A stretch of 64,000 nt of DNA from Chiloscyllium plagiosum (lineage: Eukaryota), in assembly GCF_004010195.1 (NCBI RefSeq), contig NC_057756.1, positions 1,402,672-1,466,671 on the forward strand, in the 5' to 3' direction. Positions 6,577 to 58,990 of the stretch are shown here, one piece after another (positions within the stretch are counted from its first letter, which is position 1; every line of letters begins with the position of its first letter). Both the position numbers and the translations under genes were made by a program. Below the pieces are notes generated by a model. That model was not told the origin of the DNA and did not search any database. It saw only the letters and a list, made by a program, of their open reading frames with translations.

Positions 6577-6603
6577 CTGCATCTTTTTCACGTAACTCCT
6601 CAT
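6577..6603 (-). CDS. Micro-exon 13 (27 nt, phase 1-1) of coiled-coil gene: DEELREKDA
   Basis: Minus strand tttattctgtcttgtgttacAG|atgaggagttacgtgaaaaagatgcag|GTagca; resembles the DEALMLANT and NEKLRVKSK exons. Confidence 0.75.
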
Positions 6604-6933
6604 CTGTAACACAAGACAGAATAAATGGCAATGGTTATGTTTAATTAGTAACATAAGTAACTTATAACTAGATACTACTTAAAATTTGTCAGTTGCCATG
6701 AAGTGCGCAGAAGAGAAGCTTGTCATTCAGTGTACAGAATTGTTTCTTGATTTGTGCTGAGTGTGATCGAGACCGTAATAGAGTCATAGAATGGAAACAT
6801 ACTCTTCGGTGCAACTCGTTATTCCAACCAGATATCCCAAATTAATCCAGCCACATTTGCTAGCATTAGGCCTATATACTTCTAAATGGATATTGCTATA
6901 CATCTCCCCATCCAAATGCCTTTTTAAATTGTT

Positions 6934-7258
6934 TAGATTAGATTACATTACATTACATTACAGTGTGGAAACAGGCCCTTCGGCCCAACAAGTCCACACC
7001 GACCCGCCGAAGCGAAGCCCACCCATACCCCTACATTTACCCCTTACCTAACACCACGGGCAATTTAGCATGGCCAATTCACATGACCCTGCACATCTTT
7101 TGTGACTGTGGGAGGAAACCGGAGAACCCGGCGGAAACCCACGCAGACACGGGGAGAACGTGCAAACTCCACACAGTCAGTCGCCTGAGGCGGGAATTGA
7201 ACCCGGGTCTCAGGCGCTGTGAGGCAACAGTGCTAACCACTGTGCCACCGTGCCACCC
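6934..7258 (-). mobile_element. HE1-type (V-SINE) tRNA-derived SINE, near full length
   Basis: Minus strand ggcacggtggcacagtggttagcact (A box), ggttcaattcc (B box), core gtggagtttgcacgttctccccgtgtctgcgtgggtttcc, CR1-like 3' end, (taatg/taatc)n tail. Confidence 0.92.
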
Positions 7259-7262
7259 ACAA

Positions 7263-7475
7263 ATTAGTTTCACAGGATGGTGCAACATCGAGTGTTTAAG
7301 GGCCTATACTGAGTAGTAATTTTCTATGTTTGATGTTCTTAGCCAATCCTCTAATGTTGTACCGCAACTGTCAGGAATTACCAGAAGAAAAACTTTGAAT
7401 GCTTCCAGCTTGTGCCGGCCAACTAGGATATGTTTTATGACAATACCAACTCAGCACATGTGAGGACTTATCACA
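7263..7475 (+). repeat. About 212-bp near-identical copy of 6225-6436
   Basis: Direct comparison: attagtttcacaggatgg...gaggacttatcaca, about 2 differences. Confidence 0.95.
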
Positions 7476-7551
7476 CCAATTTTGTATCCAAATGACTAGT
7501 TCTCCCCGTATTCCACGTAACCTAACCTTGTTGATCTGTTGACCATGTGGA
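7475..7551 (+). repeat. 77-bp copy of 7985-8061
   Basis: accaattttgtatccaaatgactag...gaccatgtgga, 1 mismatch. Confidence 0.95.
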
Positions 7552-8569
7552 GATTGTTACTTGTAACAATCTCCAACACTTCCTATGGAAGTTAATTCCA
7601 TCAAAGCACTTTCCATTGCATGAAAAATGTTTTCCCTTGGGTTCCATTTAAATCTTTCTCCTCTCACTTTAAACCTGTGCCGTCTTCGTTTGGACTCCCC
7701 TATCCTGAGGAAATGACCTTGACTATTCAACCCATCCGTGCCCCTTATGATTTTATAAATCTCAATAAGGTCACCCCTTGCCACTCCTCTGCCCATAGAC
7801 CCATCTGATCAAGGTCCCAATGTGCTTTAAGGCAACTTTCTTCGCTGTCCACTATATCATAAACTTTGATGTCCTCTACTAACAATACTTCCGAAATTCA
7901 CATTCAGATCATTTATACAAAGTTACCGAGGTCTCCAGTCCATAAAGAAACCCTTCACCACCAATGTCTGTTTCCTACCTTCTAACCAATTTTGTATCCA
8001 AATGACTAGTTCTCCCCGTATTCCACGTAACCTCACCTTGTTGATCTGTTGACCATGTGGAAACTTGTTGAACGCCTTATTGAAGTCCACATGGAGAATG
8101 TCCACCAGTATGCCTTCATCACTACCCTCCTTACTTCATCAAAGCATCTCAATGAAATTATTGAGATACGACTTTCCACACTCAAAGCTATTTTAACTGA
8201 ATCAATCAGTCTTTGCCTTTCCAAATTTGTGTAAATCCTATCCCTTAAAATTCCCTCCAACAACATGCTGACTACTGATGTCAGACTGACTGGTCTATAC
8301 TTCCCTGTTTTTTTGTTACCACCTTTCTTACATAATGGCACCTCGTTAGTCAACCTCCAATCATTCGGCACCTCGCCCATTGTTATCGATAATGCCAATT
8401 TGAAATTGAATTAAACAGGTGTTTTGTAAATTTATGCACTATAAAGGAAATAAGCAAGAACGCGAAAAGCAAGGGAGAAATCTTGACTAAAAAAAACGCT
8501 TAAATGGATAAAGGTGCCATTGGTTAGGCTAGCATTTATTCCCCGTCTTAATGGCCTAAATAAAATTTG

Positions 8570-8897
8570 TTACTAGGCTGCTGGTGGCCGTTCTTGTGGG
8601 TATGTTCGCTGAATTGGGAATTTGTTTTACAGATTTTTTATCCCCTTTTGCTGTGACAGCCTCAGTGTTGTGGAGCATCCTGCGAAACGCTGCTCTACTG
8701 CGTCTGTTGGAATTTAATTGGTTTCGTTCTAGCTGCATCCAATTGCTTGTACCGGTTGTTCATTGCAATGTTCGGTATATTGAGTCTTGGACAATATGTT
8801 TGTTAATATTGCTCGCATCTAACTACTCAGATAAAAAGGACAACAAGTTTGACTGGTATAACACAACAATAATAGAACAAGCCAAACAAAGGACAGC
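8570..8897. mobile_element. Old Penelope-like fragments in inverted arrangement (same family as 2466-3116)
   Basis: 8570-8790 resembles the reverse complement of about 2870-3110; 8805-8897 encodes DKKDNKFDWYNTTIIEQAKQRTA, similar to DDKQHEFHWDNTAIIGQAKQRTA. Confidence 0.75.
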
Positions 8898-8899
8898 CT

Positions 8900-9125
8900 G
8901 GGGCGGTGACTCAGTGGTCAGCACTGTTTCCTCACAGCATGAGGCTCAAGTTTGATTCCAGCGTTAAGTGACGGTCTGTGGAGTTTTTACTTTCTCCACG
9001 TGTCTACCCGGGTTTCCTACAGTTGCTCTGGTTTCCTCTGACAATCCAAAGATGTGTAGTTTAGGTGAATTGCGCATATTGGCCAGGGATGTGTAGGTTA
9101 TGTGCATTAATCATGGGGAATAGAG
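8900..9125 (+). mobile_element. Degenerate HE1-type SINE
   Basis: ggcggtgactcagtggtcagcact...ggtttcctctgacaatccaaagatgtg. Confidence 0.8.
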
Positions 9126-9221
9126 CGTTGTAGGGAACAATTTGAGGGTGCAGACATGCAAACCAATCCTTTCTCATTAATACGTGTTATTTTTGCGTTG
9201 CAATTACATTTTCTTACTCAC

Positions 9222-9248
9222 CATCGATGCTGCATTTTAATTTTAAAT
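9222..9248 (-). CDS. Micro-exon 12 (27 nt, phase 1-1): DLKLKCSID
   Basis: ttatcatatgttttAG|atttaaaattaaaatgcagcatcgatg|GTgagt. Confidence 0.75.
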
Positions 9249-9453
9249 CTAAAACATATGATAATTTTTCTCTATTATTACAATTTACAGAGTTAACTGT
9301 AGTTTACATGAAAAGCGAAATATGTCACAAAATTAACAAAGAGGAGACTTTTCTACTCTTGAATACGCGTGGCCATTGCAACTGACAGCCATGATCCCAC
9401 TGAACAGCAGAGCAAGTGAACAGTTTGACCTGACAACCCATAATCCTTTATTT

Positions 9454-9772
9454 TTAGATTAGATTACTTACAGTGCGGAAACAGGCCCTTCGGCCAAACA
9501 AGTCCACACCGATCCGCCGAAGCGTAACCCACCCAGACCCATTCTCTTGCATTTACCCCTTCACCTAACACTGCGGGCAATTTAGCATGGCCAATTCACC
9601 TAACCTGTACATTTTTGGATTGTGGGAGGAAACCGGAGCACCCGGAGGAAACCCACGCAGACACGGGGAGAACCTGCAATCTCCACACAATCAGTCGCCT
9701 GAGGCGGGAATTGAACCGGGTCTCTGGCGCTGTGAGGCAGCAGTGCTAACCACTGTGCCACCGTTCCACCCA
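9454..9772 (-). mobile_element. HE1-type SINE
   Basis: Highly similar to 6934-7258; (taatc)n tail. Confidence 0.92.
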
Positions 9773-11946
9773 CTAATTGACTTTTGAAATAAATTAGTGC
9801 CACCCACTAATTGCACCCTTAGTTGACTTTTGAAATAAATAATTAATTTCCGAGTTTAAAACCCACCATGGTCTCAGGCTCAACTGACTTTCGGAGAAGA
9901 ATGCCTCCAACTTCCATATGGAAAAGAATTAAAACAATGAAAGAAAATATGTTGTACAAAAGTATGTCTTTTTAATATATTGTAGTCGTTCTAATCGCCC
10001 ATACTACTCGAATTATTTTCCTATAAGAAAGAATGTCCTTCTGTAATATTTCATCAATCTCCACAGGCATCAGATCACATGTTAATGAAAGGTTCTTTTG
10101 TAGTAGTCATTATTGAATCCCCTACTGCAAGAAATGTCACTGAGTATAGTATGATCGAGAATTTACAAAATATTAGCTTCCATTATTTAGATAGTAAAAC
10201 AAATCGAGCAGAACTTTTGTGCAGTAAATGTAATTGCTGCCACGAAGCCTGTATCAATGAGTGGTACTCATACTCCTGGAATTAATGACCACGCCAGTCC
10301 GTTTTGCCAGTCCGTTTTGCAAATCAGTTCCAACTTGTTAAGTAAGATCATGGAGCTTTGTCGCAGATCAGCATATTGCACGACGATTACTCATGCATTA
10401 CGATAGAACAACGAAGAAGCTCAGGATTGGTGGCTTATTATTGGAGAATGTCAACTGGATGGAAGATGAAAGAGAGTAAACACGTTTTGACTGGAATATT
10501 CAAGATAACAATGGCCCTAATAAGCCAGAATGCTAGCTTTCTAGGTCATTGCAGTCAAGGAATGAACGACCAAAAATTGCAGTATATAATGTAGAAAATA
10601 AACAACGACAAATTTTTGCACCAACGATATCGGTTGTCAGTCTTCATTCTTGCACAACTGCTCTGCACATGCTATAACCCGAGTCTGTCATCACTGAAGG
10701 ACTGTCCAAGTTGTCCAGATGTTACAGCCAAGTCTTAGTTCCTATGAAACATGACCTACGCATCGTAGAAATGACTCATTCAAACATCTTCTCTTCTAGC
10801 GCCGTATTTAAAGAAACACACTCAAACGCACACAAACACATATATAAAATAAATATTAACGTGTAAGTATCAAGCATATGACAAAGATATATAAAAAGTT
10901 GAATAATACAATTAATTTCCAATCACTTTGCCATATTATTCAACCAATGAACAGATTCTTAAATTAAGTTGATCAATTGGTCACTTCTGGAATTGCACGA
11001 GAATTTAACAGTTATTCAGCATGGATTGATGACATGAACTAGCTAACTCAACAGTTAAATATTTGAAACTACTGTTGAGCTGCAAATCGAAGGAAGATCA
11101 AAGACATCAGAACATATTCAATTTCCAAAGCTATCAAATCAAAAGTGAATGTGATGGTAGACAAGAAGAACTTCTTTTAATACTATATCCAAATTTTCGA
11201 TTTTGCATGCTGGAAGAAGGCATTGATTATTTTTTAAACCCTAATTTGACTCAACTTCATTTCATGCAACGGTTGTATGTTTCCTGATCGAGGATGCTTG
11301 CCCGTCCATCTGAAATCATCATGATTATCTCGAATGCCTCACAACTATTTGCCCTTGCCGTGGTTCAATCTTCTATGGATTCCTGTTACCATTAATTATT
11401 CTATTGTGGCATGTTTTAAACAATAGATATTGATCATTGTTTCATTCTGTGCCACTTTGCTTATTGACGTCATACATTTTTAAGTCGTGGAAAACATTTT
11501 CCAACCCTCCTCATCAACATCTCAATTTTTTTTATGTGGATGTGCCCTCATTTAGGACTCCCTTTAAAACCCAACTCTCTCAACCTAACTGTTAATTTTC
11601 CTTTTAACAAAATTACCCTTTGTGCCTTAGTTTCAAGTTTTGTTTGAAACTTTTACATGTTGTATCTGAAATATTTTTACACTACATTAATTAATTACAT
11701 AGGCGCAATGTTTCAATACATATGTGACTGTATATTCATTAACTAAACAATATATGCGCGAACACATATTAAGCTATTCTATCTTCTGCTGAATTCGATA
11801 TTTCAAGTAAAAGTTACAATGGCGCTGGAATCACTACACAGAGGCATAAATAATCTGCTGCCTAATATTATTAAAGACTGAGACAAAAAACGATAACTTT
11901 CCTATTAGTTAAATTGTTATAAAGGAAGGAAAATGGGCAATTGTAC

Positions 11947-11973
11947 CTTTCTCTTCATCATGAATTGCAGTTT
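11947..11973 (-). CDS. Micro-exon 11 (27 nt, phase 1-1): ETAIHDEEK
   Basis: tttattgatgttttcgaacAG|aaactgcaattcatgatgaagagaaag|GTacaa. Confidence 0.7.
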
Positions 11974-13094
11974 CTGTTCGAAAACATCAATAAATTCAAG
12001 GATTAGAAAGATGGATATGAATAATGTATAATTTCCTACAATGAACAGGACGCCACTCCGCTTTCCTATGAAGTTTGAAATCAGTTTTCATTGCAGAGCC
12101 TGCAAAAAAAGGCAATACAAATTCACGGGAAATGGAAATAAACGTTATATAATTTGGCAGTTTGTACTGATTTTGTCCATAAATGTAAGCTGCCTCATTT
12201 TAAATGTAAGCTTTCCATGTTCCAGTCACTGCACGTTCTGCGAAGGAACAGAGCAAAATTTAAACGTTTCCCACTGATATACTGGGATCACATGTCATGC
12301 CAAATGCATTTCCGCCTGCTACACTGTTGAGTGAATCTGAAAGTTGCTCGACATATTTTCTATGCTCCATGATACTATTCATTATGCAAATGTAATTAAA
12401 TTTGGATGACAACTTTTGTTTGCCTAAGCTATGATAATAAATCACTTACAGTCTATAGTTACAGGATTTAGGTAGAAACTTTGATGAAAAATTGTGAAGA
12501 GAAAAGAAAAGACACAAAGGAGACTACAATATGGAGAAAATAAAAATAGTAGTTATTATATCTTTTCTAGGTATGAAATTCCAAGATACGTCAACGGTAA
12601 GGGAATACATTTTCTGTGCAGGTACCTTTTGCAATAGTTAACCTCATTGTTCTTCAGATAACAAGCTTTGTGAAGCAGAAGAGGATATCTGAAACTTGAT
12701 CTTACTTTTCCTGCCGTTTTCAAGGAGAAATGCCAAGAGGTGCAAAGGTTTTCATTTGTAGTCATAGGATACGAAATGACAGCTTCAGAACAAGTCATAA
12801 TGAATTCGTCATTAAGATAAAATGGACATGGCAATGAGCAAGTGAAATAACGTGGAAAACAAAGTGGAAAACAGGCCTCATACGAAAACAGCTACAACGA
12901 GATGACAACGTGGCACTAAACTGTCTATGAGAATTGTCCTGATGGGCCGTCATAAAGAGCAATTTGAACATATTTTCCTGAACAATCGAATGTTTAGAAC
13001 AGTACTTAACAAACACAAATTGATGATACATCAAGAAATCTTAGATTCAGATAACATGAATATCAGAGACTTTGCTCAATTCTGTGAACTTTAC

Positions 13095-13118
13095 CTCTGG
13101 CTGTGATCGTGAGCATTG
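13095..13118 (-). CDS. Possible extra or alternative micro-exon (24 nt, phase 1-1): AMLTITAR
   Basis: cttgtggttcttAG|caatgctcacgatcacagccagag|GTaaag; open in frame but does not fit the 36/27 pattern. Confidence 0.3.
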
Positions 13119-13509
13119 CTAAGAACCACAAGTTCTCCAGATCATCCAGCGAGAAAAAGGGTCCCCAATGGGTTAAGCAGCATAAGGCTCATTGTCAATA
13201 CGCATTAGGTGTTTTTTGTACTTACTACTACTACAAATACACACACACACACAAGCACACACACACAGCTCTACCTATATCTCTCAAAATATCTATTTAC
13301 CATTCGATATGTTCATCGCTGCTTAATACTTATACATACCGCCAACAAATGTGTGGATTTGAATCACTTAACTCGATGAGTTTTTGCTTTCCCTCACTGA
13401 CTCCACTACCACACCATAACATCACCACCCATGTCGTTGACTTGTGGAGACGCAGGATGGTTTCATTCCATCTCAAATGACGAAAGGAGCATCAGTTGAT
13501 GGTTCAATC

Positions 13510-16415
13510 TTAAAGATGGTTTTCACTGAACCAGAGGGGTACCAATATCCTGACCGGGGGTAGGGGTGGGGGTGGGAGGCGATATTTGCTAATGCTCTTC
13601 GGGTGGGTTTAAACTAATTCAGCAGGTGGATGGGAAATGAAATTGTAGTTCGAATATACGGGAGGATGAGAGTAGTGACGTCAGAACTAAGATTTCAAGA
13701 TTGCAAGAAGGCACCAGCGGACAAGGCGTTGGTTTGAGGTGCATCAACTGCAATACCAGGAGCATCCGAAATAAGGTGGGTGAACATGCAGCATGGAGGT
13801 ACTTGGGATTTCGATGTTGTGGCCATTTCAGGGACATGGGAGTGGAATGGCAATTGCAGCTTCCAGGATTTAGTTGTCCCAGTAAGAACAGAGAAAATGG
13901 TAAAAATGTTGGTGTGGCACTGTTACTTCAAGGGCAGTATTAGGATTGCAGAAAGGACGTTTGAGGACTCGTCTACTGAGGCAGTATGACTTGAGATTAG
14001 AAACAGGAAAGGAGAGGGTACACTGTTGGGAGTTTTCTATAGGCCTCCAAATAGTTCCAGAGATGTAGAAGATAGAATAGCAAAGATAATCCTCGATAAG
14101 AGCGAGCGTGACAGGGTAGCTGTTTTGGGGGACTTTAACTTGATTGGGAATAATGTAGTTCAAGTATTTTAGATGAGTCAGTTGTTGTCCAATGTGTGTG
14201 GAACGATTCCTGATACAGCATGTAGACAGTCCAACAAGGGGCGAGACCACATTAAATTTGATACTGGGTAATGAACCCAGCCAGTGATAGACTTGGAGGT
14301 AGGTGAGCACTTTGGTGATAGTGACCACAATTCGGTTATGTTTACTTTAATAATGGAAATGGACAGTTATATAACGCAGGATAAGAGTTATATCTGGGGA
14401 AAGGATATTATGATGCGATTAGGCAAGATTTAGGATGCATAGGAATTGCAAGGGGATGGGCATATTTGAAATGTGGAACTTATTAAAGGACCAGCTACTG
14501 CGGATTCTTGATAGGTATGTACCTGTCAATCAGGGAAGGCGATGCCAAGCGCAGGAGCCATGGTTTACCAAGGAAGTTGAACGTCGTATCAAGAGGAAGA
14601 AGTAGGTTTATGTTAGGATGAGATGTCATGGCTCATTTAGGGTGCTTGAGAGTTACAATTTAACCAGGAAAGATCGAAATAGAAAAGTAAGAGGAGACAG
14701 GAGGGGACATGAGAAGTCGTTGGTAGATCAGAACAAGGAAAACCCTAAGTCTTTCTGTACGTATACCAGGAATAAAAGAATGACGAGGGTAAGATTAGGG
14801 CCAAATAAGCATAGCAGTGGGAAGTTGTGCGTTGATGCAGAGGAGATGGAGAAGCGCTAAATGAATATTTTACGTCAGTATTCACACTGGAAAAAGACAA
14901 TGTCGTCGAGGAGAATACTGGGATACAGACTACTAGCCTAGATGGAATTGAGGTGCACAAGAAGGAGGTGTTCACAATTCTGCAAAATGTTAAAATAGAT
15001 AAATCCTCGGGGCCAGAGAGGAGATTGCCGAGCCTTAGGTTTTGAACTTGATGACGTCATTTTCTACAGAAATTGTGTCAAAAGACTGGAAGATAGCAAA
15101 TGTTGTTCCCTTGTTCAAGAAGGGGAGGAGAGAGAGCCATGGAAGTTATAGAACTGTGAACCTTAATTCAATTGTGGGTAAAGTGCTGCAAAGACTTATC
15201 AGAGATATAATTTGCAATCATTCAAGGCTTTTGTGAAGTGTAGGTCACGCCTCACAAACCTTACTGAGTTTTCTGAGAAGGTGACCAAACAGGTGGATGA
15301 GGGAAAAGTCATTGATGGTTGGAAATGGATTTCAGCAAGGCGTTTGACAAGGTTCGCCAGGGTAGACTATTGCACAATAAATGGAGGCATAGGATTGAGT
15401 GCAATTTAGTGGTTTGGACGAGAGGATAGTAGTTAAGGGGAAATATTCATCCGAGAGTTCAGGTAATAGTAGGGTACCACAATATCTGTTTTGGGTCCAC
15501 TGTTGTATGTCAGTTTCAAAAAATGTGCTGGATGAAGGCATAGAAGGATGGGTTAGTAAATTTGAAGATGACACGAAGGTCGGTAGATTTTTGGATATTT
15601 TTGGAGGACGTTGTAGGTTACAGAGATGCAAAGATAAGCTGCAAAGCTGGGCTGACCGGTGGCAAATGGAGTTGAATGTGAAAACGTGAGGTGATTCGCT
15701 TTGGAAGAAGTAACAGGAATGCAGATTATGGGCTAATGGTAAGATTCTTGATAGTGTAGATGAACAGAGGGATCTTGGTGTCCAGGTACATTAAGCCTTG
15801 AAACCAGGTAGATCAACTTGTTAAGAAGACATTGGTGTTAGAAGGCTTTAAAAGGGAGAGGGATTGAGTTTTAGAACCATCAGATCATGCTGCAGCTGCT
15901 TAAAACTATGGTGTAGCCACAATTGGAGTATTGTGTACAGTTTTGGATTATAGGAAAGATGTGGAAGACTTGGAAAGGGTTCAGAGGAGATTCACTAGGA
16001 TGTTGCCTGGTATGGAGGGAAGGTCTAACGAGGGAATTCTGTGGGACTTGAGACTGTATTTGTCAGAGAGAAGAAGGTTGAGAGACTACTTATTTAAGAC
16101 ATATCAGAGGGTTAGATAGGTTTGACAGGGAGCCTTTTACCTCGGATGGTGATGGCCAGCAGGAGGGTACATAGCTTTAAATTAAGGGGTGATGGTTAAT
16201 GGACAGATGTCAGGCGTAGTTTCTTGCCTCAGAAACTAGTAGCGGAATGGAATGCACTGCCTGCAACTGTAGTAGACTGGCGAAGTTCAATGGCATTTAA
16301 ATGGTCATTAGATAGCCATATAGACGAAAATTGAATAGTTGAAGTTAGATAGGTTTCAGATTGGTTCCACAGGTCTGCGAAAAATCGAGGGCCGCTGTAA
16401 TTTTCTATATTTTAT
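13510..16415 (+). mobile_element. Decayed CR1 LINE from ORF1 end through ORF2 to 3' tail
   Basis: LRCINCNTRSIRNKV (endonuclease start), YRPP, KFEDDTKVG (RT ADD motif region), LERVQRRFTRMLPG, 3' tail near 16400. Confidence 0.92.
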
Positions 16416-17720: not shown

Positions 17721-17756
17721 CCAACTGTTTCAGTTTTTCTGACAACGCTTTTATTT
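17721..17756 (-). CDS. Micro-exon 10 (36 nt, phase 1-1): EIKALSEKLKQL
   Basis: gattttcgacatttttcAG|aaataaaagcgttgtcagaaaaactgaaacagttgg|GTgaga. Confidence 0.8.
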
Positions 17757-18834: not shown

Positions 18835-19162
18835 TTTCATAGAACAGAATACCTAAGCGGGGAAGCAGGCCCTTTGGCAAAGCAAGTCCACACAGACGCT
18901 CGACAGAGTAACCCACCCAGACACATTCCCGTACCATCCTCTACATTTACCCCTGACTAATGCATCTAACCTATGCATCCCTGAAGACTGGGCAATTCAG
19001 CAAACCGGCACATCTTTGGATTGTAGGAGGAAACCGAGAAAAACCCATGCAGAAAGGGGGAGAATGTGCGAACTCCACACAGACAGTCGCCAAGGCTAGA
19101 ATTGAGGTCAGGTCCCTGCCGCTGTGAGGTAGCAGTGCTAACCAGTGAGCCACCGTGCCACC
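18835..19162 (-). mobile_element. HE1-type SINE
   Basis: Same head, core and tail as other copies; more diverged. Confidence 0.88.
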
Positions 19163-19548
19163 AAGCTTTGCTTATCGAGAATGACACAGTCCCTGGGTTT
19201 CCCTGATCTCTAGTGATCCAGTTGCACTGAGTTTCTGCTATCTCCAGCCACTGTCTTTGACTGAAACAAGAAGTATTTCGTAGAGTTTTAAGAGACATTT
19301 AGTTTCCTCTCAGAAGGTCAGCTCTACTCTCAGGTAAATTAACAAAGTATAAAAGCGGTGGTACATATTCCCTTTATTGCAAATACTGATCGGCAGATGC
19401 CTAAAAAGGACATGGATCGAAAAAGAAAAAGGACAGATCAGAAAGAACGCTAACAACAGAATTAAAGCAGATGCTCGAACAGGAATTATGATCAAAAATT
19501 ATATTGGGAGCTAAAGATAAATATCAAGGCAAAACAAGAGACCTTTAC

Positions 19549-19575
19549 CTGTGTTTGCAAGCATCAGTGCTTCAT
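19549..19575 (-). CDS. Micro-exon 9 (27 nt, phase 1-1): DEALMLANT
   Basis: tattcctcactcacAG|atgaagcactgatgcttgcaaacacag|GTaaag. Confidence 0.78.
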
Positions 19576-19830
19576 CTGTGAGTGAGGAATATTTCCGTAT
19601 AGAAATGTTAGGTTTTACGTAAGCAGCATAGTGTCTCCATTGATGTTTCAAGTTACACCTAGGAAGGAGGTAACTATTGACATTCACTTGGACCTCAACA
19701 GACACACTTATAAGCAAGACATGAAGTTAATTAGATTGAATAAAAAATGGCGCCAGGTATCCCAATACAAGTCTTGAACTTCATTTGAACTTCATGCAAG
19801 TCGTCTTCCTTTTTAAGTTGTCTCCTGATA

Positions 19831-20774: not shown

Positions 20775-20801
20775 CTTTGCTTTCAAGCTTTCGTTCCAAT
20801 T
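20775..20801 (-). CDS. Micro-exon 8 (27 nt, phase 1-1): ELERKLESK
   Basis: ttctttctatcattacAG|aattggaacgaaagcttgaaagcaaag|GTaagt (consensus donor and acceptor). Confidence 0.85.
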
Positions 20802-23908: not shown

Positions 23909-23935
23909 CTTTTACCTTCTGTCCGATGCGGCCAT
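23909..23935 (-). CDS. Micro-exon 7 (27 nt, phase 1-1): NGRIGQKVK
   Basis: ttgttcccattactgtcaacAG|atggccgcatcggacagaaggtaaaag|GTaagg. Confidence 0.75.
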
Positions 23936-26397: not shown

Positions 26398-26433
26398 TTT
26401 GTTCTTCCAAATTTGCCTTCAATTTACTTATTT
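26398..26433 (-). CDS. Micro-exon 6 (36 nt, phase 1-1): EISKLKANLEEQ
   Basis: Poly-T tract then tacAG|aaataagtaaattgaaggcaaatttggaagaacaaa|GTgagt. Confidence 0.85.
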
Positions 26434-28469: not shown

Positions 28470-28735
28470 AACACATTGACCACTGGGGAGAATGCACATC
28501 ATTCCTATACTGTGTAGACAGGCCATTCTATGGACCGTGGTAGGATACCAGAGTACCCGAAGGAATCCCACATATTCATGGGAAAAATGTGCAAATTCGA
28601 CATAGACATTTGCCTGAGGCTGGAATCGAATGCGGGCCCCTGATACTGTGAGCAGCATTGTTAACCAGTGTCTACACACACACACACACACACACACAGA
28701 GACACACACACACAACACACACACACACACGCAAA
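28470..28735 (-). mobile_element. Degenerate HE1-type SINE adjoining a (CA)n microsatellite (28674-28735)
   Basis: Core VEFAHFS..VGFLRVLW translation as in other copies; CA run visible. Confidence 0.75.
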
Positions 28736-28759
28736 CACAGATAAACGCTGAAATGTTGG

Positions 28760-31700
28760 AACATGAGCACTAAGCTGAGAGTCTCCTTCTCAATTTGGAA
28801 TGTTTCTGCTGATGAATGTTCAATTTGCAGGAGAAAAGTCTCACAGGTCGTTCCATCTTCTTTTTGCTTTTCTGTAAGAGTAGAACATCGACGTGCACAT
28901 AACTTGCGTCGAGAGACACCACAAATGTCTTTGTGTAATCAGGTGTGGCCAACTTAGGAGCAATGGTTAGCACAACTTTCAGGCTGCTAATTGCATTTTG
29001 ACAGTCAGCCGGCCACTAAAAGTTCACACTTTTCGTCAATAATTCAGTGTGTGCCCAATTAATTCCAGGAATCATGGTCTTTCTCGTTTCGTCGATGGTA
29101 TGGGAAAGCCCCTCAATAACCTCTGGTTTTGAAATCCGTGGGACAATTTGTCCATGTCCTATAACATGGCGCAGGATGGTGACTTGGCTTTCGCGGATTC
29201 ACTCTTAGCCAGGTTTATTACCAAGCCTTCCTTCCGAAGTCAATCAAATAATTCTGATAAACGCTGCAAATATTCCTTCTTTGTGTGACTAAAAATCGCC
29301 AGATGTAAACAACACAACTGGGGAATCCGCAAATGACTTTATTAGATCGTTTTTGAAATTGTGGCTGGTGTGTTTTTCACAACAAATTGCGTGACTTTAA
29401 TTTGGTGTAGTCCATTTGGTGTTGTGGTGCCCAAAATTGACTTTGGTTTTCCGGATGAAGGTACCTGCCATTATTTTCTGACTATGTACAATGTAGAAAT
29501 ATACATTGCTTCTCCAACCTTTTCAATATAGTCCTCCAATCACGGGAATGAATATGAATCAGACTTTGTCATTGCATTGACATTGTGACTTTCAAAAAAT
29601 AACTGTCGTGTACCATTTAGTTTTGACGTCATGCCTATGGGTGAGCTCCAGTCACTGTAACTCACTTCGATTATGTTGTCCTGCAGCATGCGGTAAATCT
29701 CTTTCTGAACCTGTCCCAACGTTAGAAGCTGAAATCTCTTTTGGTATTGCTTATCAGAAAAGCATTTCCTGTATCTACATAATGCATAAGTAAATTAACT
29801 GCTCAGCTGATTCCCACAAATCACTCCGTGCATAGCAACAAGTCTTTCAGTTCATTTCTGTATTCCGCTGGAAGTTAAGTCAATTATTTATCCCAGTTTT
29901 TGATAACTTCCTCATTGTTCAATTTAATTTGACGAATGTCCAATTCAGAATATTCTGAACATGGTTCTTCGCTCTGTTTTGTAACTATTAACTCTTTCTC
30001 CTTTGCTTCTCTTCCATCTCAAAATATCCTTTGAGTATATGCAAATGGCACGCACTGTGAGATTTATTTCTGCCTGGAATTATTATCAAATAGTTCACTT
30101 CACTCAAAGTCCATTCGACTTGATAAAGCCCACAAAACCTTGCTTTTAAACGGTCACCTATCATTGGGAGTAACACTAAAACTTTATTTTCATTAGTAAA
30201 ATTACAAGTTTGTGCTTTCTTATCTGCTTCATGTTTCATTGCATGATGTTATATTTTTAAATGCTGTCTATACAACTTGCCCATTTTATTTAGTCATTCC
30301 CTAAAATTAGACATTTGGTCCAAATATATGATCTCTGATTTCTGCTGCACCATTTTTTTCTTACTCAATTTTAGTGGTCCTCTCACTTTATGCTCCAAAA
30401 CTATATCAGTTTGGATGCATTTAGTCGATGCATGTGTTCTGTCTCTAATTGCAAAAAGAAAAAAAAATAGAAATGGAATTCCCTTAGCATCTGGATAGTC
30501 ATGACTATTTGATCTTGTCATGGTCTTCAAGGTTTGATGCCACCTTTGTAGTGCTCTCTCTGATTCTGGATGGTACGCAGATGTTTTGAGTTGTTTTATT
30601 TCTAAGCTGTCTATAACGTCCTTGAATAACTTTAATATAACGTTTGACTTTTGATCTGGCTCTAGGTCTGTTAATTCTGTCTATAGAGTAGTGTGTGTCG
30701 GGTGAAACATTCTGCATTGTTCTAAATGAACACGCAACTCCTCTAATGCAATTTGTCGTTGCTAAGGATTTAGTTGGGACACAGGTAGGTGTGCTGCTTA
30801 TTGTGGTTGAAAAACCAGTGAAAAGACATTCGACAATACCTGATTTTGAATAATGGAATGGCTTCTGCAAATCCAGTGGCTACATCCATTTTTGTTAATA
30901 AATACTGATTCCCACCCTATGTTTTAGTTAGGGGTCCGACACAACCAATTAAGACTCTGGTAAAAGGCCCCTCAAATACAGAAATGGAAAGTAAAGGTAT
31001 GGACTTTATTACTGCATGCGGTTTTCCAATTATTTGACTGGCACGACATGTCTGGCAAAATTTAAACACATCCCAATGCAGTCCAGGCCAGTAAAGATGT
31101 TTTTGCATTTTAGATAGCGTTTTCATTACCCCTTAATAACCTCCTACTAATACTTTGTGCGCTATCCACCGCACCTCCTTTATATAACTCATTGGTTAAG
31201 CGACTTGATAAAATTTCGCTTATTTCTCATTTGCCTGAATATGTAGTGTTTTCCATTTCCTCAGTAAAACATAATTTTTAAGATAGCAGCACTCAGAGAT
31301 GCAGTCGGATTCTGCTTTTGTGTACGCTTTTGAAACAATTGCTTTAGCTTTTTTCGACTTTTGTTGTTACACAATATATTTCACTGAGCTAAAAATGTCC
31401 ACATTGTCCTCCACCTATTCGTGTTTTGTGTCAGCCATTTGATCAAACATATCAAACATCGATCATTCTATTTCAAGTTTCTTATTTGCATTCTGTGATC
31501 TCTCCTGTTTCAATTGGTGACTTTGCGAACTCATTATGACAGTCATGAAAAGTCTCAGGATATGCTTCTTGTTATAACAACGTTGTCTAATTTTGCACAG
31601 GCTTTTCAACCATAGTGGACAGCACTCCTACCTGGAGTGTTTTTCTAGTAATCCCACCACCACTTCTCCACTTTTCATTCTAGACTGTAAAATCACTCTA

Positions 31701-35325: not shown

Positions 35326-35329
35326 ACCC

Positions 35330-39311: not shown

Positions 39312-39338
39312 CTTTCTGTTTCTGGCGTAATGTTGCCT
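39312..39338 (-). CDS. Micro-exon 5 (27 nt, phase 1-1): EATLRQKQK
   Basis: tttgcattcatgttctccAG|aggcaacattacgccagaaacagaaag|GTaaga. Confidence 0.85.
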
Positions 39339-40892: not shown

Positions 40893-40928
40893 CCATGTCT
40901 TCCACGGTTGCATTCAGTTTGTCGATTT
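40893..40928 (-). CDS. Micro-exon 4 (36 nt, phase 1-1): EIDKLNATVEDM
   Basis: gatcttgttttaacAG|aaatcgacaaactgaatgcaaccgtggaagacatgg|GTattt; EIDKLN is shared with exon 2. Confidence 0.82.
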
Positions 40929-42471: not shown

Positions 42472-42498
42472 CTTTGCTCTTTACTCTCAGTTTTTCAT
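42472..42498 (-). CDS. Micro-exon 3 (27 nt, phase 1-1): NEKLRVKSK
   Basis: gcctttatctttccAG|atgaaaaactgagagtaaagagcaaag|GTaact. Confidence 0.85.
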
Positions 42499-44940: not shown

Positions 44941-44959
44941 TCTTAAAATATTTACAAGG

Positions 44960-51624: not shown

Positions 51625-51663
51625 CGACAAAAAAGAGCAGTTCTGTGATTCCAGGGATTGAGT

Positions 51664-51853
51664 GTACAAAGATAAAAATCACACAACACCGGTTATAGTC
51701 CAATGGATTTAATTGGAAGGACTAGCTTTTGGAGGGCCGCTCGTTCATCAGCTGTGAAAGCTAATACTTCCAATTAAACCTGTTGGAGTGTAACCTGGTG
51801 TTGTGTCATTTTTAACTTTGTGCATTCCAGTCCAACACCGGCATCTGCAATAT
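51664..51853. mobile_element. Fold-back Penelope-derived repeat with 10-bp TSD
   Basis: Arms aaaaatcacacaacacc..ttaattggaag / cttccaattaa..ggtgttgtgtcattttt; TSD gggattgagt at 51654-51663 and 51854-51863; minus strand ctgatgaacgagcggccctccaaaagcta. Confidence 0.8.
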
Positions 51854-52534
51854 GGGATTGAGTAGATTTTGTGCTAAATTCGTACCAAGTTTTTGCAGTG
51901 TGGCTGCTCCATTCATTGATTTACTAAGGAAAGGCAAGCAGTTTCAATGGACAGCGGAGACTCAGAAAACATTTGACATCCTGGAAGCCGTGTTAACCAC
52001 TGCCCCTTTTTAGCGACATCCAAGTATGCAAAGCCATTCAATTTGACTGTTGTTAGTTATGTTGTTGGTGCTATGTTCATACAGGAAAGCAATGAGAAGA
52101 AAGAAAGACCTGTCGGGTATTTGTCAGGAACTTGAACATCTGTGAGCAGAAATATTCGAGAGTTATAAAGGAGACTTTCAGCTTGCAACATTTCAAAATT
52201 TATGCACCCAGGAATGTATCTGCGACAATCATATGCACTGATTATATTCCATTGAAGTTTGCATCGAAATTTACCGTCAAGAATTCCAGAGTATTTCGTT
52301 GGAGCTTGTTGTCATAACCATTGAATTTGAAAATTGCATATTTCGCAGGACGAGAAAACATAATTACTGATACATTGTCAATGGGATGAGAAACAGAGGC
52401 CTGTGATAGCAGGAATCAATGGACTAAAGCAGAATGTAGTAGTACAAGTTCGCATGTAATATGTATGTGTTATAGTATATTAAGAGTGTAATATTAAGAG
52501 GTTTTTAAATGAAGCAACGTTTGGATATTGATGT

Positions 52535-54818
52535 ATCTTTTTCTCTTTTCTGCTCCTTTCAACATGTTTGCGCAAAACTTACCGTCGGAAATAATTTATG
52601 GCATTTTCTTCTGAACGAACCCCTAACCATGTTGTATAGACTGCGGCAGCATTTTATCTTGGGCAGTCCTTTCCTTTACCACTTTAACAGAACTCACATC
52701 CGTCTTCCCAATGTTTTCTCTAAACCACAAACACTGTGACTTCTTTGACCTTTTAATTATGGTGAAAATATCTCAGCTGATGTACTTGCCTTTGCTCCTC
52801 ATAGGTTTCCTTTTAACTCCATGGTGAACTATCTCTACTACCTTTAGTGCGAACTCATTCTCATTTAAACTTGAGGATTTCTCTTTTTCCCCATTTCTAT
52901 CCCTCCAGGATTGATTTAGAAGTCAAACTTTGATTTATGAATGTGTTCATAATCGCCTGCCATTTCGACTTCTATACATGCAATCTTGCATTTCTGTTCT
53001 TCCAAATGAGTTCCCAATACTACAGGAAGTGATTTTTTTGGATTGCTCCAAAACTTTCATCTCTCTGACAACGTCATGTGTTTGATCGATTTTCAGTGTT
53101 CTTATCTCATAATCAAAATTAATGTGGGTGATCCTTTCAAGTGTATATTTGACCAGGTTCCCTCCTTTGATTCCTGAATGGTTGTGTGTAGGATTTTGGT
53201 ACTAGCTGATATGCATTTTAGGGTTTAGGGTGAGATGAGAAAGATTTGGAAGGGAACTAAGGGGCAAGTGTTTCATGCAAAGGGCGTTGCTTGTTTGCAA
53301 TGAGCTGCCGGGAAAGTGGTGAATTACAACAATGAAATGCATCTGGATGGATGCACGAATAGGAAGAATTGAGAGCGCTATCGGCTAAGTGCTTGCAAAA
53401 GGGATTGGATTAATTTCGAATATGTGTTCATTATGGACGAGTTAGACTGAATGGCCTAATTTCATCCTATATGTTTCTATGAAAATATGACTTAAGATGG
53501 TTTTCTTTACTTTCCAATTCTCCACAGATACCTTCTCTGATATTGATGCAAATACCTCACTACTTCTAACTCCCAGCTTTGGTTCGACCAATAATATCCA
53601 CCGGATGACCATCCATTTCATTTGTTCAGACAAATCCTCACAAATGAAATAGATATCTACATGCTACTCTTTGAACACAACCAGATTTTTGGCAATCGTA
53701 AGTTTGCTCATCATCAACATCCTCTTCATGAAGCGTACCTTCTACAGTCGCCTCCGCCCATTTACATATGCCTTCCACTATTTTCAAGAACTTTTAACGT
53801 TCAGGTTATCTTTCTTTCTGCTTTTCTTCCCTCTGTTTCTCCTTTTCTTCTCTTTCTTTAAGCGCTTCATCTGCTTTCAATCGTAATTCAAGCTATTTAA
53901 TTTCTCTTTCTCTTTCTTTTGCCTCTAATTCAAACTTCTTTATTTTCAATTGACTTCTAACCATTTCCAAAAATTCCGATGGCATTCCTGGAAATTGTAC
54001 ATGCTGCACAATTGTCATAAGTATCTCCCTTGTCTCCCATATTCTGGCAAATCCAACTCCAGCTTGTCTGTCATTTTCCAAAAGTCTTGCCTTTCTCCAA
54101 TCCTGCAAAACTCCCGAAGTGTTTTCTTCCACTCCGCTGAAACTCTTAGTAACCGAACCAGCCATTATTACTCAAGGCAACCGCTTTCTAAACGAACCAA
54201 ATTCTATATACAAAACAAAAGATACAAACATTTACCACTCGCTGTCTTTGAGTCCAACAACCTGAGCCCAATCTGGAATGAGAGCTTGTTATCGTGACAA
54301 GAGTTTGTAATTCATTTTAGACCTGACCAGACACCCCGAAACATAATACCAACGTAGCTTAGGCCCTAACGTTTCTATGTGCCACAGATAAAATTCGATT
54401 GGTCAAACTACTCAACATTAAGCAACACAAAATCATTCAACACTAAATAGTTAAAATGCAACAAAAGAAAGAGAAACGTGTAATATCATAACTCTATCGG
54501 ATATATTCGTAGAAAACAAATACATATTTTAAAGCTAAATATGAGCTGTTGCAGTACAGCAACATTCCATAAAAACACCCTTGGCGAAAAGACAAATTCA
54601 GAAAAAAAAAAACAGCTTTGCTCACGTCCAATCCTACAAGGCAGAAAGACCACCAAAAGAGTTGGCCACACCCAGTTAGGCTCCTTGTTCGGACTTCCAA
54701 AAAAATCTTATCCTCTCAAGCTGTTTCTCTCCTCATAGGCAGCTCAGCACTTGAACCCCAATCTCTTCCTAAATGAAAATAGAAAGAAAACCTTTTTTAC
54801 TGCCACTGCATCGTCACA
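52535..54818 (-). mobile_element. Third Gmr1-like copy: 5' LTR (about 54315-54818) and gag, interrupted by a CR1 3' fragment (53220-53480, +)
   Basis: LTR start tgtgacgatgc; QMKWMVIRWILLVEPKLGVRSSEVFASISE matches gag of the other copies. Confidence 0.82.
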
Positions 54819-54849
54819 CAGGGTAGGTCATATAAAGTACTTCAACTGA

Positions 54850-55840
54850 CCTATGTCTTCACAGAAGTGCACAGCATGGAAACAGATCATTCATTTCATG
54901 CAGTCCAGATATCCTAAACAATCTAGTCCCATTGCAGCTATTTGCACCATATCCTTTCCCAATCATATACTCGTCCAGATGTCTTTCAAGTGTTATGATT
55001 GAACCAGTCTCCACGACTTTCTCTGGAAACTTGCTACATACACGCATCAACCTTTGCATGAAAACGTTGACCCTTCGGTCCTTTTAAAACCTTTCCCGTT
55101 CTGAACCTAAATTCATGCCCTCTAGTTTTAGACTCTTCTGGGTAAAAGGCTTTGACTGTTCACCTTATTCACGTGTTCATGATTTTATACACGTTTATAA
55201 GTACATACATAATTAACGATAAGGTCCTGGAAAGAAATGCCTTCTTTATCATTCTGTTTACCTGTAACTCCAGTCTCAAGGAAATATGAACTTGTGCTAG
55301 CCGTTTTCTTTGTTCAGCAACACTCCCTAGGATTTTGCCATTAAGGGAATATGCCCTTTCCTGAATAAACATTCTAAAAGTAGAGGGAAAAAGCTAAGAA
55401 TTGCTTCAGGCAATTCAGGAGAGATTTACAAGTTACTCTTAAATGCAAAGCACAATGGAATTTTGAGGTTCTCCTCCGCAAATAGCGGTCACTGCTTTTT
55501 AGTTTATTACATTTAAATCTGAATTAGATATGTTGTTCATTAAACAAGAGTATCAAGTGATACAGGCAGGCAGGCATATCGAGTTAGGCCACAGCTTAGT
55601 CATGATCTTGTTGAATGCAGAGGTGACTTGAGGGGCTGAATTGCCTACTCCTATTCTAAAGTTCCCATGTTCTTATGCTCCTTAGTGTCGGAAAAGAAGA
55701 ACAATATTTCTGGCATGTATGCAATTTTCACGCATACCTTCGGTTCAACTTGTCCATGCCAACCAAATTTAACAGAGTAAACTAGCCCAATTTGCCTGTG
55801 TTATGCATATATCCACCCCAACATTTGCTATTCATGTTGT
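54850..55840. mobile_element. Cluster of CR1 3' fragments (minus 54850-55375; plus 55380-55680; minus 55690-55840)
   Basis: YSLNGKILGSVAEQ, EKVVETGSI..LERHLD, CR1 3' UTR and tail motifs. Confidence 0.75.
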
Positions 55841-56284
55841 TAGTGGTTCACTTTCTGAGATTAGCACAGAGTGAGATGGAGTCAGCAGTTCTTGGAGGCA
55901 TGGGTTTCAGAGACAAAACATATTCAGTCATTATTCTTCACAGCATTGAACTTTGAACGTTGCCATTCTGCAAGGCAAACAGAGCAAAAATAAACAAACA
56001 TCCTGACTGAGAACATTCTGTTCCTGACTGAGAACATTATTATACAGCCAACAAAGTATACTTTGACATAGACACCATAATGTTGTTTGAACAATTCGAG
56101 TAAATTTCGCCCCAGGTTCATAATAAACAATTTATAATGACCAGATAATTTGTTTAATCGACAATGATGAGGGGATATATTTCAGCTGGAATGGAAAGTT
56201 AAAATGATAACCTTTTTTCTTTTGGAATGATGGCAAGAGATATTTTGCCTACATGGGACTGTTTAACCTCATCCGATTATGTTG

Positions 56285-56635
56285 AGTTGGCACAGTGGCT
56301 CAGTGATTATCACTACTGTCCTTGCAGCATCAGAGAAGTAGCTTTAATTCCAGCCTCGGCGAATGCCCATGTGCAATTTCCATTGTCCGTCAGTATCGGT
56401 CTGTACCGAGTGCCCCAGTTCCATCCCGCAGTCCAAATGTGAGTAGATTACGTGCATCAGCATTCTAGTTTGCCAATAATGCCTGGAGATGGGCAAGTTA
56501 CGTACAATGGCCTTGGGGGATGCAGTGGTCTGGGGATAAGGTAAATGTAGCAGATCTGAGAGGGATTCTCTTCGGGCCATGGGGTGGACTCGATGGGCTG
56601 AATATCCGTCGTCTACACTATAGGGACTCTTTGAC
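56285..56635 (+). mobile_element. Degenerate HE1-type SINE
   Basis: ggcacagtggctcagtg...ggtgtggactc-like 3' end. Confidence 0.7.
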
Positions 56636-56858
56636 TTTATGCACTGGTGGCATCTTCGAAAATATTACACCGTTTGTTGAAACCATCCGTCAGGCTTTTG
56701 TGCTTAGCTCTCTAAACCAAATTCTGAAAACAATTGGATTGTTCTAAAGACTCCGTGCAGTTGATGCCATAATGGTCGTCAAAAATGGAAACTCCCTAAC
56801 AATATCGTTATCTCCACATATAAAAAGCTGAAATTAAGAATGACATTGTTCTTCTTAC

Positions 56859-56894
56859 TGAAATCCTTGCAGTCTCTGTTGAGTTTGTCTATTT
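56859..56894 (-). CDS. Micro-exon 2 (36 nt, phase 1-1): EIDKLNRDCKDF
   Basis: atgttttcgtttccAG|aaatagacaaactcaacagagactgcaaggatttca|GTaaga. Confidence 0.85.
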
Positions 56895-57941
56895 CTGGAA
56901 ACGAAAACATTTCTGTATCAACAAGTCGATGTACAAGCACGCTTTTGTATTAAGTATTTTTTTCAAATTTTCCCATTTATTAAAAGAGTATAATGTTTAT
57001 GTTCAACTGAGTTTAATCATACCATTCCTCCGTCAACTGTCACGAAAGATCTCAGTATTTCATCATGTATTTATTCTATTTCTCATCACGATCATTCACC
57101 TTGGACATTGTACGGGAAATGGAGACTGCCGTCTCGTTTTAATCGTGTTAGTCATTATTTAACCGGGTAAGACATTTTCCATCGAATCTGGAACCTTCTA
57201 CATCTTGCTTCAATCTCGTGCTACATTGTCACATTTCTGGCAAGTTTACTAGAGACTTTCAAGTTTTTAAATTCGATTATTTAATTCAAATGGATGCATG
57301 ATTATTGTAACAGCTAGCAACAGTATTACTGAACCCAACAATTTTGAAGTCTATGTCTTCCCAATGATACTCAAACCAACTTCAAAGGATTGAGTTTTTC
57401 CTAAACGCTTCTGCACTAAACGCTTCAGTGCAGAAGCGTTCGATACTTACTTTTTATTTATAGTAGTTACTTATTTCTTGTTGCCCATTTATAATCTCTT
57501 TTCCAATTTTAAATGCGGGGCATAAATCTATTATGTTTATTATGAAATAATAGTATTATTTTCTCTTGAATGCGATTTAAAATTAATTACTTTCTTCATA
57601 TAATTGGAATAATAGATCGAATAAGAATCAACCAGTGGTACCCAACACAAGAAACATAAAAAAACAGGATTAGATCAGTTTATCAATATGGTGCAGAATT
57701 CTAAGTTAATTTCATTTTTTTGAAGACATCCTTCACTCATCATTAAGGATTCATACCTATCAAGGAGCATTTTCTACTGTAACATATTCACATGGTGTAC
57801 AATACCAAAATTCAATTTGCATTTAGTCAAGATGATAGATCACACTATATTAAAACATTAATTCTATTCCATAGGGTAAGTACTTAATGACATCATGTTG
57901 TTGCTGGTGTGAATCGTCTACGGGCACATACTCTTGTTGGT

Positions 57942-58245
57942 GGGTGGCATCATTGCTCAGTAGTAAGCACTGTTGCTTTGCAGTGTCAGGCACCCAGTTT
58001 AATTCCTGCCTTGAGCGACTGTCTGTGTAGTGTCTGCATATTCTCCCCATATTTATGCGGGCTCCCTCCAGGTGCTTCGGTTTCCTCCCACACGCTAAAG
58101 GTGTGTAGGTCAAGTTAAAATGTCCATAGTGTTAGGTGCGTTAGTCATGGGTAAATATAGGGTTCGGGAATTTGTCCTTATGGGTTACCCTTCAGAGGCA
58201 AACATTTGGCGAATTGGCCTGTTCCATACTGTAGGGAATCTGATC
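57942..58245 (+). mobile_element. Degenerate HE1-type SINE
   Basis: gcgactgtctgtgtagtgtctgcatattctcccc...ggtttcctcccaca core. Confidence 0.8.
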
Positions 58246-58972
58246 ATTTCAGCGTCATTGAACTCACTGTTTGTTCTCAATCAATGAAGTTACGTGCCAA
58301 TGGAAGAAAAGACCAAACAAGGCAATGATTATTTCATGACAGATGAATGCAATACATTTAGGAAACTGTATTTTGATGTAAATGCTAGTGTTTCATCCAA
58401 AAACATTTCAAACGCCCATAACCAAGGAACTATTTTGACGAAGTGCCGTGTTTTCCTTTTTTCTAACAGTGTTTCACTTTTGTTACTTCTTTGCCTGTCA
58501 CACATCGACTTTATTCTGTGCCAAGCCATTATGATAGGCATTGCTCACCGGCTTCTTCAGCTCTCTAAACTTTCCATTTTATTTCTCTCTGTTTTTCTCC
58601 TTCTATAGCAATTTTGTGTGAAACTGGATTTTCAATTTTGACTTTTCACTGACTCCCTCGCTCATCCAGAATCATCAGAGTTATTTTCAGTCTGTGCCTA
58701 CATGTCTATCAAGTACACATACAAACTAGACTTTACGTTATAAAACAGATTGCGCATGAAGTTATTATCAAAGTGAGCTGCACAATCTGAAGAAACTAAG
58801 AGAAAATATATGCGAAGTATTAGAGAGACTGAAATCCATCTATCTTTTGAGTTGGAGTGAAAAATAGGGTTACGTCGGAAAATAACTCGATTTGAAACAG
58901 TACAAAAAAGAAAGAAAAATATTTAACAGATGAAAAAGGTTCCATAAAAAATGAATGGCATTTTCGTTTTAC

Positions 58973-58990
58973 CTTTATTCAGTTTTTTTT
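58973..58990 (-). CDS. Micro-exon 1 (18 nt, phase 1-1): xKKLNK
   Basis: gtattttctttcattttcAG|aaaaaaaactgaataaag|GTaaaa; keeps frame with exon 2; length depends on an A8 homopolymer. Confidence 0.6.

Follow-up and report, generated by a model that had tools for sequence, protein, structure and literature searches.

A strand-specific array of phase-1 micro-exons and a phase-matched B30.2 exon in Chiloscyllium plagiosum, probable parts of one very large coiled-coil-B30.2 gene

A 64,000-nucleotide (nt) stretch of the 3.56-gigabase genome of the shark Chiloscyllium plagiosum (RefSeq assembly GCF_004010195.1, contig NC_057756.1, positions 1,402,672 to 1,466,671 of the forward strand), here called the window, contains thirteen short minus-strand segments that had been singled out by eye as possible middle exons of a hidden coiled-coil gene. 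Window positions count from the first letter of the stretch, and negative positions lie before it. Extraction from the window sequence verified every coordinate and length of the original prediction, giving one segment of 18 nt, eight of 27 nt and four of 36 nt, each bounded by a pyrimidine tract with AG and by GT. The acceptors consisted of a pyrimidine-rich tract followed by CAG in twelve cases and TAG in one, while the donors were GT sites that were mostly G/GTAAG- or G/GTGAG-like (slashes mark splice sites). Spliced in order the segments form 378 nt in which the phase-1 frame, junction codons included, has no stop compared with 13 and 10 stops in the other two frames, and the resulting 125-residue peptide was identical, letter for letter, to the one first quoted. 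All introns are phase 1, i.e. placed after the first base of a codon, and the twelve junction codons are GAA, GAG, GAT or AAT (encoding E, D and N). Intron lengths range from 1,199 to 14,360 nt. Of the 52,414-nt span 0.72% is coding, in agreement with the figure of under 1% given originally.

The spliced peptide was rich in glutamate and lysine (E/K) with hydrophobic residues at a spacing of three to four, as had been described from inspection. Its hydrophobic power at a period of 3.5 residues was 2.46, a value reached by none of 5,000 shuffles (mean 0.19, maximum 2.01). From residue 0 to residue 62, across six exon junctions, the core hydrophobics held a constant heptad register (i mod 7 = 2 and 6), which then shifts by one. 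Exons in the window mostly alternate between 36 and 27 nt, and the helix register is unbroken across junctions because each such pair encodes 21 residues, or three heptads. The alternation of 12 and 9 residues is kept across the two long window introns, which therefore need no hidden exons. The four 36-nt exons were 39-61% identical to one another, compared with 26% for random 36-mers and 31-37% for flanking intron. Purine content was 70% in the window exons and 42% in the preceding 50 nt. The zone free of AG before the thirteen acceptors had a median length of 55 nt versus 11 nt for all 3,898 AGs of the same strand, and was at least 20 nt long at 11 of the 13 acceptors versus 28% of all AGs.

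A scan model was built from position weight matrices of the thirteen acceptors and donors (intronic bases only) and from amino-acid composition, and was applied to both strands of 314 kilobases (kb), comprising the 64-kb window with 150 kb downstream and 100 kb upstream. The plus strand had been named beforehand as a control, and there the model gave few matches or none, with minus and plus counts of 12 and 0 at a score of at least 22, 30 and 3 at 18, and 51 and 9 at 14. After one round of retraining, segments of 18, 27 or 36 nt numbered 35 and 0 at a score of at least 16 and 43 and 1 at 14. When any multiple of three from 9 to 63 nt was allowed, 27 nt was returned 27 times and 36 nt 15 times, with each other length seen at most three times.

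Like micro-exons were located on the minus strand from window +138,412 to about -101,573 by the model trained on the window exons only, so that the array extends beyond the 13-exon span on the same strand, by about 79 kb on the upstream side and by about 108 kb on the downstream side. Twenty-five non-redundant exons outside the window scored at least 16 (eleven of 36 nt, fourteen of 27 nt), none of which had been in the first training set, including those encoding (E)VENLKKLISEL, (E)IAALQKKLQDL, (E)LETLKQDLQEK and (E)EQLRKKTI. With the thirteen window exons included, the array comprises at least 38 micro-exons and 1,152 nt, nearly all of them 27 or 36 nt long. Micro-exons falling within the runs of N in the flanks (window -127160 to -124000, 64674-67020, 82530-83029, 91060-92804 and 156903-157270) would be missed by these scans.

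Downstream of the array, about 4 kb from the last candidate micro-exon and 9 kb from the last high-scoring one, a 196-amino-acid (aa) minus-strand frame at window positions of about -106,045 to -105,458 encodes a SPRY domain (PF00622, E 3.1e-15 to 4.3e-15). An excellent acceptor inside this frame (..ttgtctctgcag/TG, in fuller form ctttgttttgtctctgcag/TG) lies two bases before the next codon. The exon must thus take exactly one base from its predecessor, in agreement with the phase shared by all the micro-exons. The 174 residues between this acceptor and the stop are encoded on one exon and begin (V)DVLLDEYTADPRFSLSKDRSSIRW. Among the structures in the PDB, the SPRY exon scored best against BTN3, BTN3A1 and BTN2A2 (95.6-84 bits), followed by TRIM7, TRIM58 and TRIM21 at about 76 bits. 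It was the sole SPRY exon found in the 314 kb by tblastn of 162 relatives, V-set and C2-set_3 proteins included, and the same search detected no RING, B-box or Ig exon in this region, up to window +164,000. On the contig as a whole, none of the 41 genome matches to the butyrophilin-type IgC domain (PF22705) and none of 150 scored B-box matches (150 of the 312 genome candidates being scored) was placed, with RING sought in the 314 kb only. The contig carries two further SPRY exons of the same subtype, at contig positions 994518-995036 (+) and 4577498-4578016 (+). The former shares the phase-1 acceptor, and the 10 kb upstream of it held only four weak candidates, which were 21 nt in length and not 27 or 36 nt.

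An exhaustive representative protein search with the SPRY exon gave 2,671 matches at E<=0.001. Pfam domains were compared for 20 of the 150 matches listed and sequences for 13 relatives, namely seven of the 20 and six isoforms or other relatives. The closest single-domain relatives among the matches listed were RefSeq models of Narcine (XP_069775385.1), Scyliorhinus canicula (XP_038672308.1), Callorhinchus (XP_042191567.1) and Leucoraja (XP_055510696.1), and the names given to the chondrichthyan relatives by NCBI include A33-like, TRIM39-like, TRIM58 and TRIM69-like. These proteins are 220-460 aa long and have an N-terminal E/K-rich coiled coil followed by a SPRY domain of the same subtype, 41-50% identical to that of the locus, with no RING, B-box, Ig or other Pfam domain. 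Clean internal cassettes of 9, 9, 9 and 6 residues, which equal the 27- and 18-nt exon sizes, distinguish their isoforms. RefSeq isoforms of such a kind usually rest on RNA sequencing (RNA-seq). The N-terminus of the skate protein XP_055510696.1 is a hydrophobic stretch that the other relatives do not have.

The same skate protein ranked first in a local blastp of the spliced peptide against the fetched proteins. Window residues 86-125, encoded by the exons beginning at 17721, 11947, 9222 and 6577, aligned without gaps to skate residues 36-75 with 22 of 40 identical (E 2e-7), and the alignment runs across three exon junctions. Its Smith-Waterman score of 112 was reached by none of 2,000 residue shuffles (48 ± 7.6, maximum 78). 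Skate residues 75-100 matched exons outside the window at -76,885, -77,197 and -96,311 with 16 of 25 identical, and the SPRY domain then follows. One annotated protein of another elasmobranch thus carries homologues of window, distal and SPRY exons in the same order. The skate stalk (residues 1-125) used as a query gave no match at E<=1 among 90 candidates.

The protein collection itself gave two matches of 95-303 aa to the SPRY exon in a word-indexed search, a 197-aa 'hypothetical protein chiPu_0007872' of Chiloscyllium punctatum that was 98% identical to the SPRY frame and a partial Scyliorhinus torazame protein that was 72% identical. As chiPu_0007872 opens with translated intron from upstream of the acceptor, it is an unspliced single-exon call, and the micro-exons are missing from that annotation. 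The suspicion that the gene was unannotated or mis-annotated is supported in that the closest named protein in the searched collection is this unspliced frame.

We consider it very likely, on the evidence of the genome sequence, that the thirteen segments are the middle exons of one very large minus-strand coiled-coil-B30.2 gene. The putative gene would span about 244 kb of the contig (roughly 1,296,623-1,541,083), with less than 1% of it coding. The locus presents a strand-specific array of phase-1 micro-exons encoding a heptad-periodic E/K-rich helix and then a phase-matched B30.2 exon, and we infer that the array and the SPRY exon belong to one transcript. The original prediction of the middle of a real gene with its ends outside the window is supported by the continuation of the array on both sides, the phase of the SPRY exon and the collinearity with the skate protein. 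No exon for a RING, B-box or Ig domain was detected, and a scan for Met-initiated hydrophobic first exons, as a sign of a transmembrane segment, returned 110 unspecific candidates. The locus therefore probably encodes a protein without RING or Ig domains, within a small coiled-coil-SPRY subfamily of cartilaginous fishes.

A number of observations weigh against this assignment. Its splice junctions are predicted from genomic sequence. The PRY match of the SPRY exon was weak, at 14.6 bits against a Pfam cut-off of 27.5. No protein of 304-2000 aa with the C. plagiosum SPRY was returned by the word-indexed search, so that no gene model joins the stalk and the head in the searched collection. Permuting the order of the exons equalled the observed skate score in 29 of 2,000 trials. 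The skate SPRY is 43% identical to that of the locus and 45-47% identical to the two other SPRY exons on the contig, so that orthology is unsure and the skate gene could be a paralogue. The skate match also passes directly from the last window exon to ones some 83 kb further downstream. Nine window exons, and the candidates lying from the window to -76,885, have no equivalent in the skate chain, and these intervening shark candidates could be specific to the lineage, alternative or false. At the other end of the array, 129 minus-strand frames of at least 45 aa from window +134,001 to +164,000 gave no Pfam match, and neither the 5' end nor a start codon was found there.

Other explanations of the locus have to be set against the same data. 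The segments could be chance AG..GT pieces picked from AT-rich, A/G-rich sequence with no gene present, and it is true that a single 27-nt frame is quite often open by chance and that crude filters did not discriminate. Of two untrained generic filters, which used the pyrimidine fraction, the donor consensus and charged residues, one returned 20 segments on the minus strand and 6 on the plus strand and recovered 7 of the 13 exons, while the other gave 22 and 8 compared with 15-29 in mono-shuffled sequence, the signal not being separated from noise. Chance would, however, have to account for the heptad periodicity of the peptide, which exceeds all 5,000 shuffles, the strand excess of the trained and retrained models, their generalisation to 25 untrained exons outside the window, the confinement of lengths to 27 and 36 nt and the gap-free homology with the skate protein, and we regard its probability as negligible.

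Real micro-exons might instead make up a separate coiled-coil gene, or several tandem genes, with the SPRY exon belonging to a neighbour and the window gene not being of the B30.2 type. The 4 to 9 kb between the last micro-exon candidates and the SPRY exon, the want of a gene model joining the two and the public annotation of the SPRY frame as a stand-alone protein are in keeping with such an arrangement, but the stand-alone model begins with translated intron, and the SPRY exon matches the array in strand and phase and is the only one of its kind, with no other domain exon, in the 314 kb. All close relatives are moreover a coiled coil plus SPRY, and the skate RefSeq chain joins homologues of window exons to a SPRY domain in the same order, which makes separate genes improbable. 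There is a small but real chance that the array is genuine in origin and much of it now evolutionary debris, with most of the duplicated micro-exons passed over in splicing or in decay and the product limited to a short isoform resembling the skate protein of 295 aa. In favour of this, the skate protein has some ten units, shark candidates over about 83 kb are left out of its alignment, the paralogues are 220-460 aa long, and one in-window candidate (28845-28871) would create a stop. Against decay, canonical splice sites and open frames are preserved in all thirteen window exons, with a single heptad register maintained across six junctions or more, and the nine without a skate counterpart look as intact as the other four.

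The window exons and the one extra candidate are listed in Table 1. The extra segment ends in T and the exon at 26398-26433 begins with AA, so that joining them would create TAA; it may be a false positive, a poison cassette or a decayed duplicate.

Table 1. Minus-strand micro-exons of the window and one additional candidate; residues in parentheses are encoded by the junction codon
Feature	Peptide	Window position	Strand	Evidence or remark
18-nt phase-1 micro-exon	(E)KKLNK	58973..58990	-	ttttcag/../gtaaaa; acceptor top-scoring in trained scans
36-nt micro-exon	(E)IDKLNRDCKDF	56859..56894	-	extraction and trained-model scan
27-nt micro-exon	(N)EKLRVKSK	42472..42498	-	extraction, trained and retrained scans
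36-nt micro-exon	(E)IDKLNATVEDM	40893..40928	-	weakest donor (gtattt), leave-one-out donor score -0.5
27-nt micro-exon	(E)ATLRQKQK	39312..39338	-	extraction, trained and retrained scans
36-nt micro-exon	(E)ISKLKANLEEQ	26398..26433	-	extraction, trained and retrained scans
27-nt micro-exon	(N)GRIGQKVK	23909..23935	-	good splice sites, low composition score
27-nt micro-exon	(E)LERKLESK	20775..20801	-	extraction, trained and retrained scans
27-nt micro-exon	(D)EALMLANT	19549..19575	-	extraction, trained and retrained scans
36-nt micro-exon	(E)IKALSEKLKQL	17721..17756	-	aligns with skate XP_055510696.1 residues 37-48
27-nt micro-exon	(E)TAIHDEEK	11947..11973	-	aligns with skate XP_055510696.1
27-nt micro-exon	(D)LKLKCSID	9222..9248	-	aligns with skate XP_055510696.1
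27-nt micro-exon	(D)EELREKDA	6577..6603	-	aligns with skate XP_055510696.1 (DDEELREKNA)
extra 27-nt AG..GT segment	(E)KQKEDGTT	28845..28871	-	scores well; inside 12.9-kb intron; not counted in gene

Other features of the region were mainly repeats. Rfam gave no matches in the window, and in 57 minus-strand frames of the window flanks Pfam detected only the reverse transcriptase and endonuclease of long interspersed nuclear elements (LINEs). LINE-type frames (reverse transcriptase, apurinic-type endonuclease) were present at 60854-63204 (-) and a further long LINE-type frame at 2430-3020 (+), both in flanks or introns of the gene. A repeat of about 160 nt at 19004-19165, 380 nt from the exon at 19549-19575, had at least 40 scored genome copies of 78-87% identity among 6,912 first-look candidates. 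The original prediction had placed all exons in non-repeat islands, which holds as far as the LINE-type frames and the 160-nt repeat are concerned, neither of which overlaps an exon. A microsatellite of the (GT/CA)n type at about 28680-28770 (-) reads as a CVCVCV frame. Between the last micro-exons and the SPRY exon lies a 156-aa minus-strand frame (window about -98,350 to -97,880) with a sub-threshold GDSL-lipase match (E 1.8e-5, 25.8 bits versus a cut-off of 32.9). Elsewhere in the genome, SPRY, B-box and butyrophilin-type IgC exons form a very large cluster at about 9-34 megabases of contig C37, where the matches number from dozens to more than 100, and which looks like a TRIM/BTN expansion region. 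Two other gene types were considered for the array and rejected. A collagen-like gene would be in keeping with phase-1 exons whose lengths are multiples of 9, and no Gly-X-Y was present in any frame; for a C-type-lectin stalk like that of CD23, no lectin exon was detected in Pfam scans of the flanking frames.

If the array and the SPRY exon are transcribed together, the product would have a C-terminal B30.2 domain (PRY-like plus SPRY) at the end of a long alpha-helical coiled-coil stalk. The alternation of exon sizes suggests that the array may have grown by tandem duplication of a two-exon unit of 36 and 27 nt. As every exon is phase 1 at both ends, any subset stays in frame. The window segments could be constitutive or cassette exons, and stalk length could vary by exon skipping or duplication with the frame intact, a possibility in line with the 18- and 27-nt isoform differences of the paralogues. 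Recognition of such tiny exons may be aided by the strong sites (CAG/..G/GTRAG), the long AG-free zones and the 70% purine content observed. By analogy with butyrophilin tails and TRIM proteins, the protein would most likely be a coiled-coil dimer or oligomer presenting B30.2 ligand-binding heads. More speculatively, cartilaginous fishes might keep an Ig-less, RING-less coiled-coil-B30.2 family in which the stalk acts as a splice-programmable ruler, its dozens of symmetric 27- and 36-nt exons being included or skipped to set the spacing of the B30.2 heads, either ancestral to the BTN/BG heptad tail or an independent reinvention of it, with the shark locus as an extreme member invisible to standard gene prediction. 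We put this forward tentatively, as a doubtful but conceivable extension.

A gene of at least 558 codons would here be hidden at a coding density below 1%, the sole named model found being its terminal exon misread as a stand-alone protein. Such micro-exon arrays are therefore probably under-annotated in large vertebrate genomes. The strict unit of 36 and 27 nt, equal to 21 residues, is a clean natural case of exon size fitting a structural repeat, and collagen genes have a comparable unit in their 54-nt exons. The layout of heptad micro-exons and B30.2, seen in butyrophilins and, without B30.2, in chicken BG, is now tied to a shark gene in which no Ig or RING exons were found, and this bears on the origin of the cytoplasmic tails in the BTN, BG and TRIM-B30.2 immune gene families.

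A full-text literature search found no published description of heptad exon arrays of 27 and 36 nt. The nearest known systems have a similar construction. In the sections of PMC4046983 that treat BG, the long cytoplasmic coiled coil is described as encoded by many tiny exons, each with a split codon at its two ends and an integral number of helix-repeat residues; in chicken BG these exons are 21 nt long, corresponding to 7 and sometimes 8 residues, and they vary in number with in-frame skipping possible. The shark array is alike in that a long coiled coil is written in many tiny split-codon exons. It differs in having exons of 27 and 36 nt (9 and 12 residues, 21 per pair) separated by introns of 1.2-14.4 kb, and in a locus of about 244 kb, whereas genes of 240 kb are not described in those sections of PMC4046983. 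BG genes also have a single IgV exon and a transmembrane exon but no B30.2, in contrast to the shark locus with a B30.2 exon and no Ig exon found.

In butyrophilins, very short 'heptad' exons precede a terminal single-exon B30.2, according to the parts of PMC6790196 and PMC4046983 that deal with them, and PMC12841164 includes a report of butyrophilins in cartilaginous fishes, with variable heptad numbers elsewhere. The mammalian genes BTN1A1, BTN2A and BTN3A are like the shark locus in this order of very short heptad exons and one terminal B30.2 exon, and the shark B30.2 scores best against BTN3A1 and BTN2A2 structures. The heptad exons before B30.2 are present in the shark, though of 27 and 36 nt and not the 21 nt of BG, as is a C-terminal B30.2 on one terminal exon, with PRY sub-threshold. 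The mammalian genes differ in having few heptad exons together with IgV, IgC and transmembrane exons, while the shark has at least 38 micro-exons and neither an Ig exon in the 314 kb nor an IgC match on the contig.

TRIM proteins of the RBCC type share a coiled coil followed by a C-terminal PRY/SPRY, and NCBI gives the relatives of the locus TRIM-like names. TRIM coiled coils are encoded by few ordinary exons, and the N-terminal RING and B-box that define these proteins were not found in the 314 kb. The locus therefore falls outside BTN, BG and TRIM proper on its N-terminal domains. It agrees with the chondrichthyan coiled-coil-SPRY subfamily in SPRY subtype, in having only an E/K-rich coiled coil before the SPRY and in collinear stalk similarity, and differs in that the chondrichthyan members, known from protein models, are 220-460 aa long whereas the shark locus would encode at least 558 aa over about 244 kb. 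The locus is thus best described as a giant, essentially unannotated variant of the butyrophilin/BG heptad-micro-exon design and not a new kind of system.

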